Source: Azolla caroliniana (lineage: Eukaryota; Plantae; Polypodiophyta). Taken from it: 64,000 nucleotides of DNA. Shown here in pieces: positions 33,291-57,963 of the stretch. The stretch covers positions 7,936,001-8,000,000 of the forward strand of contig JBHGNT010000005.1 of the NCBI GenBank assembly GCA_043228905.1, read 5' to 3'. How positions within the stretch are numbered: the stretch's first letter is position 1; each line of letters starts with the position of its first letter. Both the position numbers and the translations under genes were made by a program. The notes under the pieces were generated by a model. The model was not told the DNA's origin. It searched no databases and saw only the letters and a list, made by a program, of their open reading frames with translations.

Positions 33291-33750
33291 TTGGTTTGGT
33301 GTAAACACGTCATAAATTTGACGAAAGTAGAGCTTCATCCTTGCCAAGGGCTAGGCCCCATCCCATATATGGTGATCACACTTCCATGGAAAAGAAAAAG
33401 ATCTCTCTCTCTCTCTCTCTCTCTTTGTGGTTTAGACTCAGCATCAACGTCATAAATTTTACGGAATCCAAGTTCCATCCTTGCCATAGGCTAGGTCTTG
33501 TCCCACATATCACAATCACTCTCCTATGAATATTAATAAGATCTCTCTCTCTCTCTCTCTCTCTCTCTCTCTCTCTCTCTTTGATTTACACCTCAGTATC
33601 AACGTCATAAATTTGGGAGAACCCAAGTTCCATCCTTGCCATAGGCTAGGTCTTGTCCTACATATCACAATCACTCTCCTATGTATATTAATATGATTTC
33701 TCTCTCTCTCTCTCTCTCTCTCTCTCTCTCTCTCTCTCTCTCTCTCTCTC
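33291..33750. repeat. Three tandem copies of a ~115-bp module separated by (TC)n tracts; more copies at ~38030-38400, ~38885-38950 and ~42535-42610
   Basis: Shared core CAACGTCATAAATTT...CCAAGTTCCATCCTTGCCATAGGCTAGGTCTTGTCC.ACATATCACAATCAC in copies at 33291-33400, 33424-33541 and 33581-33697. Confidence 0.8.
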
Positions 33751-34347
33751 GGTGAAAACACAATTATATTAACAAATGTGTGTGACAAACACTACTTACA
33801 ATGGGTGGCACAACAATGTATGGTTGCCCAATATACCCACGAACTACATGGGTAGTGGAACATGTTGATTTGCCAATAGGCAAGATGAACACTCCATTGA
33901 GGAATGAATTTCCACTTGCTCCAATAAAGAAAATTGTCACATTAATATTCCCTTCAACTTTTGTAGATATGCATTCACTCCATGTTTACCATCAAATACA
34001 AAAGCATTGTGCATATCCCAATTATGACAAATCCCCAATATCTCGGAAATAGGAAAACGATCTCCATCTCTAATTTTGGGCCAATCTATCTAAATTGAGC
34101 AAACATCCACTATCTAGGCGTCAAATAACATCGTGATAAAACTTGCCAAATTTGAGATACGTAACTCCAAAGTTGACAAGCAATTGCACTTGGACATTGT
34201 ATAAACTATGAGTGTTATCTTCCATTTGAACAAAAGAAACAATTGCCCATTGCTAGTCCATGTCGCGTCGTTGCTTTAGAGTTAATCCCAAAGGCAAATC
34301 CCCCCATCAAAACTCTCCAAATGAAGAGGTTTGCTACGAGTGACAAA
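33751..34347 (-). mobile_element. 5'-truncated LINE copy (zf-RVT plus 3' UTR) flanked by (TC)n on both sides
   Basis: Homologous to 34614-35210 and 57350-57920. (TC)n at 33698-33750 and 34348-34396. Confidence 0.85.
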
Positions 34348-34396
34348 TCTCTCTCTCTCTCTCTCTCTCTCTCTCTCTCTCTCTCTCTCTCTCTCT

Positions 34397-34602
34397 TGTA
34401 ATTAGGTTACCCTAATGGTAAGTTGTTACACCACAAGCACTGTGTCTTGGGTTCAAAACCCAATTTCCTCACCTCTCTATTATATACTTCATACATATGT
34501 CTTAATTCACTAGATGCCAACATGGAATGTAATGGTTGAATCCATGACCTCCTTGTCTCCATTTGGCAACCTTACCAACTGAACTACATTCATCTGGGCA
34601 AA
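34397..34602 (-). mobile_element. tRNA-derived SINE-like element; further copies at 38970-39350 (tandem partials), 41094-41275 and 42450-42512
   Basis: Minus strand has A box GTAGTTCAGTTGGTAAG and B box GGTCATGG(A/G)TTCAACC. The 3' end ...CTAATTACAA abuts (GA)n. Confidence 0.7.
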
Positions 34603-54200: not shown

Positions 54201-57200
54201 GTTGTCCTGATTATTCGCGATTCGTTTTGTCCACATATAATCTATAATGATCCATATGGACGTTTTTTGGTGATGGAAGTCAAGTATTTTGAGGATTTGA
54301 TATGGTTGGTAGGAATCTATGCACCCAATAATGCTAATCAACGCATTGAGTTATGGTCTTCAATGTATCCACGGTTATTAGTGGGACGTGTTGGTTTGTT
54401 AATGGGTGATTTTAATATGTGTGTTGATGCTTCACAATCTACTTCACGATTCTCATTGATGTAGTCTCCTGAGCAAGCAGTTTGGGATCATTTGGCATCA
54501 GAGGTTTTGAAGTTGGATGTATGGAAATGGTTACATCAAGATGAGGTTGGGTTTACATTTCAGTCTATGCAATACAAGGAAACATGGAGTAGGTTAGATA
54601 GAATGTATGTTATGCATGATGAGTCATCTTTGCCAGAGATGCTTAATATGTCAATTATGCAAGAGGTTGTGACATCAGATCATTTTCCCATATGTTTTGA
54701 GTTTAATAAACATGGGGTAGATATGTACTAAATATTGCTTCAATGAGTTCCTTTGAGGTTTAATTCTTCTTTACTATTACATTCTTTATTTGATGCCTAT
54801 ATGCAACAAATTTTTGGCAGGTTTTCAAAACAATTTATTTCAAAAGGATGGCATGCATGGGATACAACACTACAAAACATCAATGATATTCATCATATGT
54901 ATGGTATGACTAATGCTAAAAGACGTAAGAAAATGATTGATAAGTTTTCATATATTCTTACCCGATGCAATGTACTATTGATGAATAATCCACATGATGA
55001 AGAGCTTTTGGATGTTCAAGTTCAAGTATAGGACATTGTGAAGAATTTGTCTTGTCAAAGTTATCAACAGACAAGACTACGTCAATTAAAGGAGGGATTT
55101 ATAGATAATCAATCACAATCTCATATGTTTTTTCAAGGATTAAGACCACCATATGCTCGTTCAAATGTGGTACAAATTAAGATAGCGGATGACATTGTTG
55201 AAGACCTAGTCAAGGTTATTGAGTTATGTATTACTCATTTTAAGAATTTGATTAGGCTAGAGTTGATTATTAATGAGGATGTCTTGAAAGCATGACAAGA
55301 GTTTTATAATGTAAATGGGAGTGTCGTGAATACAAATATTTGTCAAGAATTGGATGCTGATTTTGAAGAAGCTGAGGTGGAAAAGGTATTGTTACACCTT
55401 CCAAATGGTAAAAGCCCTGGCTGGGATGCTGTTACAAATGAAGTTTTTAAGAAGTATGCTAGCATGCTTAAGAGTCCATTCACACAAATGTTTCAACAAT
55501 GTTGGGATTCTGGTTTCATGCTTGAGAGCTGGAAGGTGGGCTTAATCAAATATATACCAAAGGTACCATCTCCAGAGTCATTTCATCAACGGAGGCCTAT
55601 TTCATTGATGGGAGGGTTGTACAAAGTTTTTGCAAAGATATTGTTCAACAGACTTAAGAAGTTCTTACCTCAACTTATTCATCCATCTCAATATGGTTTT
55701 ATTACAGCTAGAAATATATTGCATAATGTTTTGAATGTTCAAATGGGGACCGGTTATGCTTGACATACACATCAAGAAATGGTGATGGTGCAATTAGATT
55801 TGGAAAAAGCATATGATCATGTTAATTGGTCTTTCCTCTTAGGTGTGATGTATAATATGGGGTTTGGTCCTCGTATGTGTCGACTTATCTTTTTGCTAGG
55901 GCAAAATGCAACCTCCCGTGTGATGCTTAATGGCGGAGTCACTCCGAAAGTGTTTCTTACTAGATCAGTGCAGCAAGGATATCCACTAAGCCCATTGTTA
56001 TTTGCTATTGTTACACATCCTTTGTTTGTAATGTTGTCAAATCTTGCGTCCAGTGGTGATATTGTCGGTTTGCATCTTCCTTCTGGTGGACAATTGGTGG
56101 CAAAAGCATTGGCAGATGATTCTCTTATGTTTTTACAAGCCTCAAAAGAAAATCTTAAAAGGAGTATGCAAGTTTGGGATCAATTTGCTTTGGCTTCAGG
56201 GTTTTATATAAATTGGAGGAAGTCTCGCCTTATTTCTTGTACGGAGAGTGATTTGGAATGTTTTGGATGGCAAGGGTCAGTGATTACACGAGGTTCAATT
56301 TATCGCCATTTGGGTTATCCATTAGGCATTGATGTTACAAATGTTCAATTGATTGATTGGATTGGTAGTAAATTGAGGGACAAATTTATGTATTAGAAGT
56401 CTCAATTATGACCCTTTCATGTACGACTCAAAGTGGTGCAATGTGTCTTGATACCCATGTTATTATATTTTTTGCCTTTACTTCCTTGGACTAAGAAGGC
56501 ATTACAAAGCATGTTACAACCAATTCGGTTCATGTTGCGGCGAAAGGGAGAAATGATGGGAGTTACATGGATTTCATGGGACCATTTGGCTACTCCTAAA
56601 AGGTTAGGCGGTGCAACAATATTGGATTTGGAAAGGCATTTGATGGCTCGTAGATTTACATTATTACGAGATATATGTCAACAAGATCCACCATGGATAT
56701 CTATGATGCAATATTTTATTGAGCATGAAGGATTGGTGCATGGGAAAACAAAGATTCAAGCATCATGGTGGTCATTACTGAATGGAAGTATTCCTCTAAA
56801 GATTAGACAATTTGTATCTGGACAACATTTGGTAAGATCGTGGCAAGATGCATTATCTCTTTTTGAATGGGGACCATCAAGTGATCGAGAATATTGTAAT
56901 TCATTACAAAACGAATTGTTTGTTTCTTCTCGAGTGTTGTTTTGGCATGGGAAAGAGAAGTTGAGATCTCAATTCAATCGTTTATTTTGATTGGGGATTG
57001 TACATTTGGAAGATGTGATTGATAATGAATCTCAAACGTTGTCAGATTTTGAAGATGCCAAGAGATGGTTATGTATTCCCCCAAATTATGGATTTATTTG
57101 GGAGAAATTACATGATATACCATTGTTGCAAGGATCTTTGCCATTGAAAACCAATTTTGCACCTTGGGTAGATTGGCGGTTACAAGATGGTACACACTTG

Positions 57201-57920
57201 TTACAAGTCACTACAAATATATTGTATCATCATGTGATGACATCATTATCTTGGCTATCTCCTAAATCAACGAAGGTGTGGAATGTATATAAGTCAAATG
57301 CAAGGTGGTGGAAAATAATACAACTTGGTTGGCATTCCCATCTACCATTTCATGCAAAGGTATTCATATGGAGAGTCATGATTGGTGGGCTCCCATTAGG
57401 TTCGGCCTTAAAGAGACGACAACTAGGGTCTGGCACTTGTTTCTTTTGCACTGTTCCATTGGATGATAGTACACATAGGTTCATTAAATGTCCTATAGCG
57501 TGTACCATTTGGAAGTACTTATCTGACATTTGGCAAGTTTTAACCCGTTGTTGTTTGAGACCTCAACAATGGGTTTTTTCTCAATATGTTAAAAATGGAT
57601 CAAACGATGAGATGGAGATATTGTTCCAATTTTACGTTATTGGGGTCTACAACACAATTGGAATATGCGTAATGCTTTCATGTTTGATAATAGACATGGG
57701 GTGAAAGCCTATATAAAGAAGCTTAAAGGTATTCTCATGTGGAATTTTTGGATGTTAGAGCATGTGGGGATCATTTCCTCAAATGCATATTCAGGTTTTT
57801 TAGTAGCATTACAGAACGTCCCTCTCCCTACATAGGCATATGATGGGTAGAGGAGACTAAGAAGTGTTGTAACTAAGTGGATTTTACATACAATTAATAT
57901 AATTGTGTGCTTTTACCAAA

Positions 57921-57963
57921 GAGAGAGAGAGAGAGAGAGAGAGAGAGAGGAGGAGGAGGAGGA
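57921..57963. repeat. (GA)n-(GGA)n microsatellite at the LINE 3' junction
   Basis: Directly visible. Confidence 0.9.

Follow-up and report, generated by a model that had tools for sequence, protein, structure and literature searches.

A very abundant LINE of the plant L1 clade resides in or beside GA microsatellites in a single orientation, and this arrangement is probably produced by its own endonuclease, which would nick the (TC)n strand and so prime reverse transcription. The preference for GA is strong, not absolute. The element was studied in a window of 64,000 nucleotides from Azolla caroliniana (GCA_043228905.1, contig JBHGNT010000005.1, positions 7,936,001 to 8,000,000), by which the whole stretch analysed is meant, and in copies retrieved from outside it.

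Element copies in the window

An earlier note had described six copies of a single LINE group joined to GA repeats. All six pieces are genuine and were located, together with their strands and junction tracts, where that note had placed them (Table 1). A GA or GA-rich tract is present at the sense 3' end in 6/6 copies and (GA)n at the 5' junction in 5/6; orientation follows the repeat strand, minus-strand copies lying within (TC)n and plus-strand copies within (GA)n. Fixed orientation and head-to-tail stacking were borne out. The single group was replaced by three subfamilies: copies A, B and E are 82-88% identical to each other in nucleotides and copies C and F 86-93%, while copy D displays about 40% amino acid identity to copy F and 76% to cluster P0048. 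Across the window, 30-mers holding at least four repeat units amount to 0.3% for GA and 1.2% for TC.

Table 1. Repeats, LINE copies and junction tracts of the window (window positions).
Position	Strand	Feature	Remark
33291..33698	-	Unclassified repeat of ~120 bp, three head-to-tail copies	33291-33401, 33424-33541, 33580-33698
33699..33750	-	(GA)26 tract	3' junction of copy A
33751..34347	-	LINE copy A, 5'-truncated	A/B/E subfamily
34348..34395	-	(GA)24 tract	5' junction of copy A and 3' flank of SINE-like element
34396..34600	-	SINE-like element, ~205 bp	GA on either side
34614..36993	-	LINE copy B, 5'-truncated within RT region	Internal deletion
36994..37037	-	(GA)22 tract	Common to copy C (3' end) and copy B (5' end)
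37039..37720	-	LINE copy C	C/F subfamily
37721..37986	-	Dispersed head repeat, ~270 bp	
38959..39346	-	SINE-like remnant cluster	3' flank (GA)5
41065..41275	-	SINE-like copy (41093-41275)	3' flank (GA)14
41315..42327	-	LINE copy D, 5'-truncated	Divergent subfamily; 3' junction A/GA-rich
42328..42373	-	(GA)23 tract	Separates U6 retrocopy from copy D 5' end
42374..42447	-	U6 snRNA retrocopy, 3'-truncated	Rfam U6, 70.4 bits, E 1.9e-16
45791..45804	+	(GA)7 tract, 5' junction of copy E	Preceded by dispersed repeat (about 45660-45790)
45806..45995	+	LINE copy E, 190-bp 3' fragment	A/B/E subfamily
45996..46013	+	(GA)9 tract	Common to copy E (3' end) and copy F (5' end)
46014..57919	+	LINE copy F, full length but broken	C/F subfamily
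46949..53294	-	Copia-type LTR retrotransposon inside ORF1 of copy F	Class read from translated sequence
57920..57949	+	(GA)15 tract, 3' junction of copy F	Followed by (GAG)n

Further GA tracts accompany these features. The three units of the repeat at 33291..33698 are spaced by sense-strand (GA)11 and (GA)19, and the 3' end of copy B carries a short A run followed by (GA)5 (34603-34612). The 5' end of copy C abuts the dispersed head repeat rather than GA; this repeat begins right after (GA)5 (37987-37996), and in outside locus L093 the same head repeat is followed by the final ~55 bp of the LINE terminus. All five 5' tracts of the window come after the 3' end of another repeat: copy B after copy C, F after E, A after the SINE-like element, D after the U6 retrocopy and E after a dispersed repeat at about 45660-45790. 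These tracts are therefore not independent of tails, and independent evidence was taken from the outside copies.

The SINE-like elements and the U6 retrocopy carry the same GA flanks as the LINEs. The SINE-like element at 34396..34600 has motifs resembling A and B boxes, as judged by eye, and no tRNA match was returned for it by an Rfam search. Upstream of the U6 retrocopy come a SINE-like piece (42448-42509) and (GA)8. The retrocopy itself breaks off where U6 has an internal GAGA and carries on as (GA)23. As U6 RNA has no GA tail, this stop favors a (TC)n target strand as the primer. The U6 case is single: no other small-RNA retrocopy turned up when 20 of the 99 outside loci described below were scanned with Rfam. 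A special link to the neighbouring OPR gene was not adopted, the evidence being neither for nor against it.

Copy F and coding capacity

The 11.9-kb span of copy F, which the earlier note had called full length, includes the copia insert; the LINE itself measures about 5.56 kb. The copia element is flanked by a TAAAC duplication; it arrived after copy F and is no part of the GA system. Copy F comprises a 5' UTR, the interrupted ORF1 and an ORF2 running from 54003 to about 57830, which encodes APE endonuclease, RT and zf-RVT domains and contains 10 stops within its first 1208 codons. The Pfam profiles Exo_endo_phos, RVT_1 and zf-RVT exceed the cut-off in both copy F and outside locus L025, and the closest match in the PDB is to ORF2p of human L1 (E 7e-44). 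Locus L025 has intact ORFs and intact endonuclease catalytic motifs; its ORF1 gives weak matches to DUF4283 (E 1.7e-4) and zf-CCHC (E 6e-4), both below the curated cut-off. The endonuclease carries VEH where the compared L1s mostly carry QE, and a conserved stretch TFQSxQYxxTWSRLDR.

Sampling of outside copies

Outside copies were searched for by a pattern scan with no GA in the pattern. The metagenome scan gave at least 120 loci out of about 160 matches estimated in total; 99 of the 120 listed loci were kept, 98 through alignment and L110 by eye, and the other 21 were discarded as matching by chance. Among the matches listed, removal of 3 duplicates and 4 too-short rows left 92 distinct 3' ends. 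For the 5' ends, 51 reaching the contig start or close to it were removed, as were L064, L096, L101 and L110, whose ORF2 homology extends further upstream, and the duplicates L055, L102, L116 and L127, leaving 40 distinct junctions among the matches listed. Locus L118 is counted as negative according to its automatic boundary, yet is GA-joined in the alignment. Among the 80 loci with contig names, all true outside copies originate from one metagenome assembly series, hence from a single host or a small number of hosts. Chimeric contigs occur: L014/L055 and L080/L102 have a common 5' flank and different 3' flanks. A scan of viral contigs gave 7 loci and no element copy. Another joint of a 3' end, GAGAG and a truncated copy was seen in a further run (X1). 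The 24 loose-end rows listed out of about 4,000 are mostly of divergent subfamily sequence and do not enter the 5'-junction counts.

GA tracts at the junctions

Among the matches listed, sense (GA)4 or longer is found at 62/92 distinct 3' ends (67%, background 0.83%) and sense (GA)3 or longer at 72/92 (background 2.2%), leaving 20/92 without (GA)3. Antisense (TC)3 or longer occurs, in the same set, at 0/92 3' ends and 1/40 5' junctions. At the 5' side, where truncation points are scattered, sense (GA)4 or longer is present at 16/40 distinct junctions (40%) among the matches listed, an enrichment with p 3e-23 against the 0.83% background and 3e-11 against 5%. The GA/TC preference and the 5' enrichment predicted in the earlier note therefore hold outside the window. 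Copies joined to GA measure anything from 64 bp to full length, and no (GA)4 was found in the element bodies scanned. Both ends exceed the level of 20% of flanks in one target type that is given for microsatellite-specific elements in the available part of PMC4494074, and orientation relative to the GA repeat is fixed, as in that functional class.

The 5' signal is stronger in younger copies, GA-joined 5' ends being found in 10/19 copies nearer the young contigs versus 6/21 of the others (Mann-Whitney p 0.04). Unique flanks with ordinary target site duplications (TSDs), which the earlier note had expected if GA were only a tail, were seen in part: GA is absent at 24/40 5' junctions among the matches listed, including 9/19 young copies, but a junction-placed TSD was found at 0 of 27 loci, mostly non-GA, which gave only chance-like candidates of 6-7 bp, and any TSD in a GA tract would be masked. 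An empty allele was not seen in four runs on the 5' flank of copy E, itself a repeat; copy E is present at the same place under one other organism label.

The same note had claimed that poly(A) is absent. Instead, the 3' order in 60/92 ends among the matches listed is element, oligo(A) of 0-12 nt, then (GA)n. The A count is zero in 10 of these 60 tails and at least two in 38, and its length varies within a subfamily, which fits oligo(A) priming. Among the matches listed, one of the 92 3' ends is a pure A14 tail and 4/92 tails are A-runs interrupted by single G's.

Origin of the insertion pattern

The proposed mechanism can be summarized as follows. The ORF2 protein would nick the TC strand. 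The freed 3' end would then pair with the oligo(A) of the RNA or, as for U6, with an internal GAGA. A second-strand cut within the same tract would leave GA on both sides and conceal any target duplication in the repeat. Because both half-tracts would remain targets, later insertions would stack head to tail and face the same way.

The strongest alternative, which we regard as unlikely, predicts an identical pattern. Read-through transcripts would bear flanking (GA)n, only the TC-ended nicks of a loosely specific endonuclease would prime well, and the target would be set by RNA-DNA pairing and not by the enzyme. The priming of U6 at its own GAGA, the 10/60 tails having no A before GA and the 5' ends devoid of GA all agree with such pairing, and for RTE elements the repeats at the 3' end have been proposed to be linked to the site of insertion (PMC6007223). 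The alternative is less easily reconciled with the 38/60 tails in which a variable A-run of two or more precedes GA, or with loci L025, L092 and L098, whose 5' ends are GA-joined despite A-rich tails without a GA tract, although chimeric contigs are possible there.

An element-encoded GA tail is very improbable. The 5' tracts would then belong to neighbouring elements as their tails, a single event of template jumping or tandem duplication having joined the two, as the position of all five window tracts behind another repeat would allow and as is observed in L107, a tandem with a LINE tail upstream. Such a tail is nevertheless absent upstream of 13/14 GA-joined outside 5' ends with a readable flank, among the matches listed and as checked against a small flank database of 99 loci plus the window, by which this explanation is largely refuted. 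It is further opposed by U6 RNA, which has no GA tail, by the pairing of neighbours from separate subfamilies (B with C, E with F), by the 83-95% identity of the window copies to the young contigs and by the A-run, which precedes GA and does not follow it. Template-jump concatemers were rejected as a general cause. Slightly less probable still is the absence of any targeting, with GA arising from later decay of A-tails and copies accumulating passively in tolerant GA-rich regions: microsatellites born from LINE tails (part of PMC3812793), the A-runs broken by single G's and the abundance of simple repeats in ferns (part of PMC4607520) are in its favor, but neither the sense-only GA at 5' truncation points (16/40 versus 1/40 antisense, local backgrounds 0.83% GA and 0.45% TC) nor the stronger signal in younger copies is explained.

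Lineage of the element

In an unrooted RT tree (LG+G4), the fern clade groups with the L1s of Riccia (support 99/96) and the angiosperm L1s form a separate clade. The element belongs to a fern clade of its own, whose sister group is formed by other L1s of Adiantum and Ceratopteris, followed by those of Riccia; among named proteins, those of the ferns Adiantum nelumboides and Ceratopteris richardii come closest. Placement with four L1-like proteins of fish and six unnamed ones was rejected in favor of Riccia (p-AU 0.005), in a tree with no verified Tx1 reference. The comparison with Tx1 and Kibi drawn in the earlier note stands as an analogy, not as a lineage: membership in Tx1 was set aside as unlikely, given an RT that groups with fern and liverwort L1s, an ORF1 of plant type (weak DUF4283/CCHC matches) and a plant host. 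Sequence comparison points away from Tx1 and towards an L1 lineage of seed-free plants. The Artemia protein P0323 was rejected as a close relative, its similarity being a tandemly repeated 27% match only.

Like this element, plant L1-clade LINEs have two ORFs, APE-RT-zf-RVT in ORF2, an oligo(A) tail and 5' truncation; their ORF1 carries zf-CCHC and DUF4283 (part of PMC5203782), both matched weakly in the present element. The element differs from them by its short tail, its strong GA/TC target bias and the lack of an ordinary TSD at the 27 loci. In flowering plants, 224/233 L1 families end in poly(A), according to the available portion of PMC3747384.

Relation to known systems and implications

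In excerpts of PMC4494074 and PMC3812793, Kibi at (TC)n and Koshi at (TTC)n are Tx1-clade elements of teleost fish, crocodilian Tx1 families target (TTCC)n/(TTTC)n, and Tx1 families have been suggested to move SINEs, acting in trans, to a target that both share. Kibi and Koshi share with the present element an APE-type non-LTR organization and a purine/pyrimidine microsatellite target, Kibi even the same dinucleotide duplex; the sense strand is GA in the fern element, and Kibi may face the other way. Unlike these animal elements (part of PMC4494074), the fern element has a plant host, a plant-type ORF1 (DUF4283 and CCHC, weak matches) and an RT grouping with liverwort L1s. Waldo (ACAY)n, Mino (AC)n and Dong (TAA)n, from insects and a snail, are also microsatellite-specific non-LTR retrotransposons, but of other lineages, repeats and animal hosts (excerpts of PMC3812793). 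In plants, the SaTar MULEs of guayule and rice target microsatellites and form modular, non-nested arrays joined by repeat tracts, as here; they are however DNA transposons, bounded by terminal inverted repeats, which reside mainly in (TA)n and do not use target-primed reverse transcription (part of PMC5907723). Micron MITEs are further microsatellite-targeting DNA transposons of plants (part of PMC3812793). The truncation of U6 at GAGA resembles that of tailless retropseudogenes in therian mammals, which are primed internally and in which a small RNA is likewise copied in trans and cut where it pairs with the nicked target; these prime at A-rich stretches, whereas the fern case uses GAGA, matching a (TC)n primer (excerpts of PMC5322556).

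Neither a GA-targeted LINE of a plant or fern nor a flowering-plant L1 that targets microsatellites was found in the literature searched, which lay outside Repbase, Dfam and most subscription papers, where a database entry may exist. Microsatellite targeting has likely originated in plants independently of animals. A broader reading is put forward tentatively, as slightly short of an even chance: an old fern L1 clade, with subfamilies of about 50% ORF2 identity and perhaps including Adiantum elements, would have acquired (TC)n-specific nicking independently of animal Tx1 and, with its SINE-like passengers, would multiply GA tracts at every insertion and hence the targets available to it. No microsatellite-specific LINE of land plants would have been described before it, and it would contribute to the high content of simple repeats and LINEs in fern genomes. 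LINEs amount to 2.2% in ferns versus 0.49% in seed plants and simple repeats to 15.5% versus 1.19% (available part of PMC4607520), and these two high values could be connected by an element that divides GA tracts and seeds them anew. GA microsatellite markers in these ferns would often be flanked by repeats, and a candidate repeat-specific integrase of L1 type may be of interest for targeted gene insertion. Sequence-specific APE-type LINEs have been described from animals; an independent origin among fern L1s would offer a natural test of how an L1 endonuclease gains specificity, made feasible by the intact ORFs of L025, the sister clades in sequenced ferns and the clade-specific motifs VEH and QSxQY.

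LINE copies in the window

The six LINE pieces and their repeat tracts were confirmed at the positions claimed in the earlier note. On the coding strand, all six copies end 3' in a GA or GA-rich tract, and five of the six start directly after (GA)7-24. The copies do not form the single LINE group proposed previously and are distributed among three subfamilies: A/B/E (82-88% nucleotide identity among window copies), C/F (86-93%) and D, whose amino acid identity is about 40% to F and 76% to protein cluster P0048. The LINE sequence of copy F amounts to about 5.56 kb; the copia-type element broke into its ORF1 at a later time, duplicating TAAAC. 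The ORF2 of F displays 10 stops in 1208 codons and contains APE endonuclease, RT and zf-RVT domains. Within the window, each 5' tract is preceded by another repeat's 3' end as well, and target cannot be told from tail on the window alone. Two LINE arrays flank the OPR-like gene, both facing away from it. The old repeat on either side of the E/F array was rejected as a target duplication, being too diverged and too distant from the junctions.

Features of the window
Feature	Position	Strand	Remarks
Nested LTR retrotransposons	1-31600 and 60760-64000		Paired LTR-like repeats, copia-like internal regions
Oriented head-to-tail array	33291-42576		9-kb stack
LINE copy A	33751-34347	-	
LINE copy B	34614-36993	-	
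LINE copy C	37039-37720	-	
Dispersed head repeat, ~270 bp	37721-37986	-	Ahead of copy C
Tail of copy D	41276-41314		A-run broken by single G's
LINE copy D	41315-42327	-	
U6/SINE-like fusion	42374-42509	-	U6 retrocopy 5' side joined via short common GG
Intron-containing gene, NADH:flavin oxidoreductase family (PF00724)	about 43400-45116	+	OPR-like by reading; C-terminal extension
Old repeat	45274-45509 and 58089-58336		72% identical
LINE copy E	45806-45995	+	
LINE copy F	46014-57919	+	
Copia-type element	46949-53294		LTR identity 87% with gaps counted; 45 mismatches / 599 columns
AT-rich MITE-like insertion, ~870 bp	50385-51256		In copia element; second copy 59221-60043, 84%
Degenerate pentatricopeptide-repeat pseudogene, candidate	about 58700-60650	+	By eye; interrupted by MITE-like copy

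Junctions of the outside copies

The last 4.6 kb of F is matched by 3,320-7,449 contigs per run in four DNA runs from three coded organisms. In one of these (X1), the summed depth, which is not a copy number, climbs along this segment, with 11,497 for the first bin and 132,784 for the final one, a gradient such as 5' truncation produces. Outside copies were sought in metagenome contigs using a GA-free pattern on the conserved LINE 3' terminus, which has 5 matches in the window and none in 100 shuffles. The collection holds at least 120 pattern loci, 99 of 120 being element copies; the copies among the first 80 loci share a single assembly series, and the outside copies consequently stand for one host or few.

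Among the matches listed, sense (GA)4 or longer is located within 30 nt of the 3' end in 62 of 92 distinct ends and (GA)3 or longer in 72, against 0.83% and 2.2% respectively in the background of the same contigs; antisense (TC)3 was found at none of the 92. The terminus is followed by an A-run and then by the GA tract in 60 of these listed ends, the run being 0 to 12 long with two or more A's in 38 of the 60. This order indicates a short and variable oligo(A) with the GA outside it, and the description of the LINE as lacking poly(A) had to be abandoned. Four of the 92 listed ends (L015, L025, L069 and L092) carry A-runs interrupted by single G's, as does window copy D, and one ends in A14 alone. 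The interrupted tails possibly reflect repeated priming or slippage on poly(A) at the GA site. Target specificity has been defined by more than 20% of flanks (PMC4494074); the GA-joined family exceeds this share and counts as target specific.

The (GA)n enrichment sought at outside 5' junctions is present: among the matches listed, sense (GA)4 or longer abuts 16 of 40 distinct readable junctions (0.83% in the background, p 3e-23) and antisense TC one of 40. GA-joined copies vary in length between 64 bp and the complete element and no (GA)4 occurs within the element bodies, so the 5' tracts cannot be element-encoded. Beyond the tract, 14 readable flanks yielded one LINE tail, one other repeat and one match to its own duplicate only, with no match for 11 in a small database. 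Younger-looking copies are GA-joined in 10 of 19 cases versus 6 of 21 for the others (p 0.04, among the matches listed).

The other 24 of the 40 listed junctions lack GA and count against GA targeting. The earlier note had named non-GA 5' flanks with ordinary TSDs as contrary evidence; non-GA flanks do occur, but no ordinary TSD was seen among the 27 loci examined. Several of the non-GA ends are fused to other repeats. Apart from copy C, the dispersed head repeat leads into a B-type piece (L041) and a bare LINE terminus (L093), LINE 3' ends of differing length being attached to it (window, L093:1-350, L041, L072, L073). In L093, the head plus the terminal ~55 bp of the LINE resembles a non-autonomous element which, if truly so, would point to stringent 3'-end recognition. 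The non-GA ends probably have mixed origins, with deletion, template switching, non-autonomous derivatives and real off-target insertion each playing a part. The 5' junctions of L054, L098 and L118 are compound (GT)n/(GA)n microsatellites, and L054 starts directly at (GT)n, a possible secondary target. In the empty-site search, the flank of E proved to be a repeat itself, and a contig of coded organism D has E at the same position.

Proposed insertion mechanism

Copy D is directly preceded on its 5' side by a U6 retrocopy (Rfam U6, E 1.9e-16). The retrocopy matches U6 up to an internal GAGA, after which (GA)23 takes the place of the different, U-ending tail of the Rfam consensus. Because U6 RNA carries no GA tail and D breaks off at a position without GA, the best reading of the tract in this one case is target DNA, with its TC strand serving as primer on U6. 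Tailless retropseudogenes that were internally primed are similar (PMC5322556). In the window, sense GA tracts likewise border a ~205-bp SINE-like element and a ~120-bp repeat on both sides; outside SINE-like copies were chosen beside LINE tails and left out of the counts. The U6/SINE-like fusion arose by template switching, or else U6 inserted into the SINE.

Judging from the junction pattern, ORF2p would nick the TC strand and the freed end would prime on oligo(A) or internal GAGA. Second-strand cleavage inside the tract would leave GA on both sides, each half-tract remaining a target, and copies would line up head to tail in one orientation, as in the 9-kb stack. This scheme is the most likely one and we hold it with good confidence. 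The main rival, in which read-through GA in the RNA pairs at the target, is expected to produce the same pattern and appears improbable.

Lineage and known systems

The best-matching named proteins belong to Adiantum nelumboides (47-57%), which suggests a fern host. Locus L025, with GA at its 5' end, encodes an intact ORF pair of 476 and 1277 aa; its 11.6-fold coverage may indicate a collapsed contig. ORF1 gives weak DUF4283 and zf-CCHC matches, the former being the typical ORF1 domain of plant L1 (PMC5203782). RT trees place the LINE in a well-supported clade including Adiantum members, whose sister comprises other Adiantum and Ceratopteris L1s. In an unrooted RT tree computed with no mixture model, the fern clade joins Riccia L1s with 99/96 support; under the same settings, grouping with four fish ('fish L1', our own label from two source names) and six unnamed proteins was rejected (p-AU 0.005). 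The LINE is thus likely, though not proven, to fall outside Tx1, the comparison set holding no verified Tx1 sequence. The endonuclease keeps its catalytic motifs; VEH replaces QE throughout the clade, and a TFQSxQYxxTWSRLDR stretch is conserved. Given its alignment to human L1, this stretch may be the specificity hairpin of L1 endonucleases.

Microsatellite-specific non-LTR elements are known from animals (Waldo, Mino, Kibi, Koshi and Dong, PMC3812793; crocodilian Tx1 families, PMC4494074). In plants, modular arrays linked to microsatellites have been described for DNA transposons (PMC5907723), and flowering-plant L1s have poly(A) ends (PMC3747384). The accessible text of a 2025 review treats microsatellites as general landing pads and names no LINE of this type (PMC12477314), that of two fern genome papers holds nothing on a GA-targeted LINE (PMC12868710, PMC9387920), and that of a fern genome survey gives repeat proportions only (PMC4607520). 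No report of a GA-targeted plant or fern LINE was found in the published papers to which the search was confined. The GA-joined LINE is a real feature, representing a fern L1 lineage which resembles Kibi in the way it works and is probably unrelated to it.
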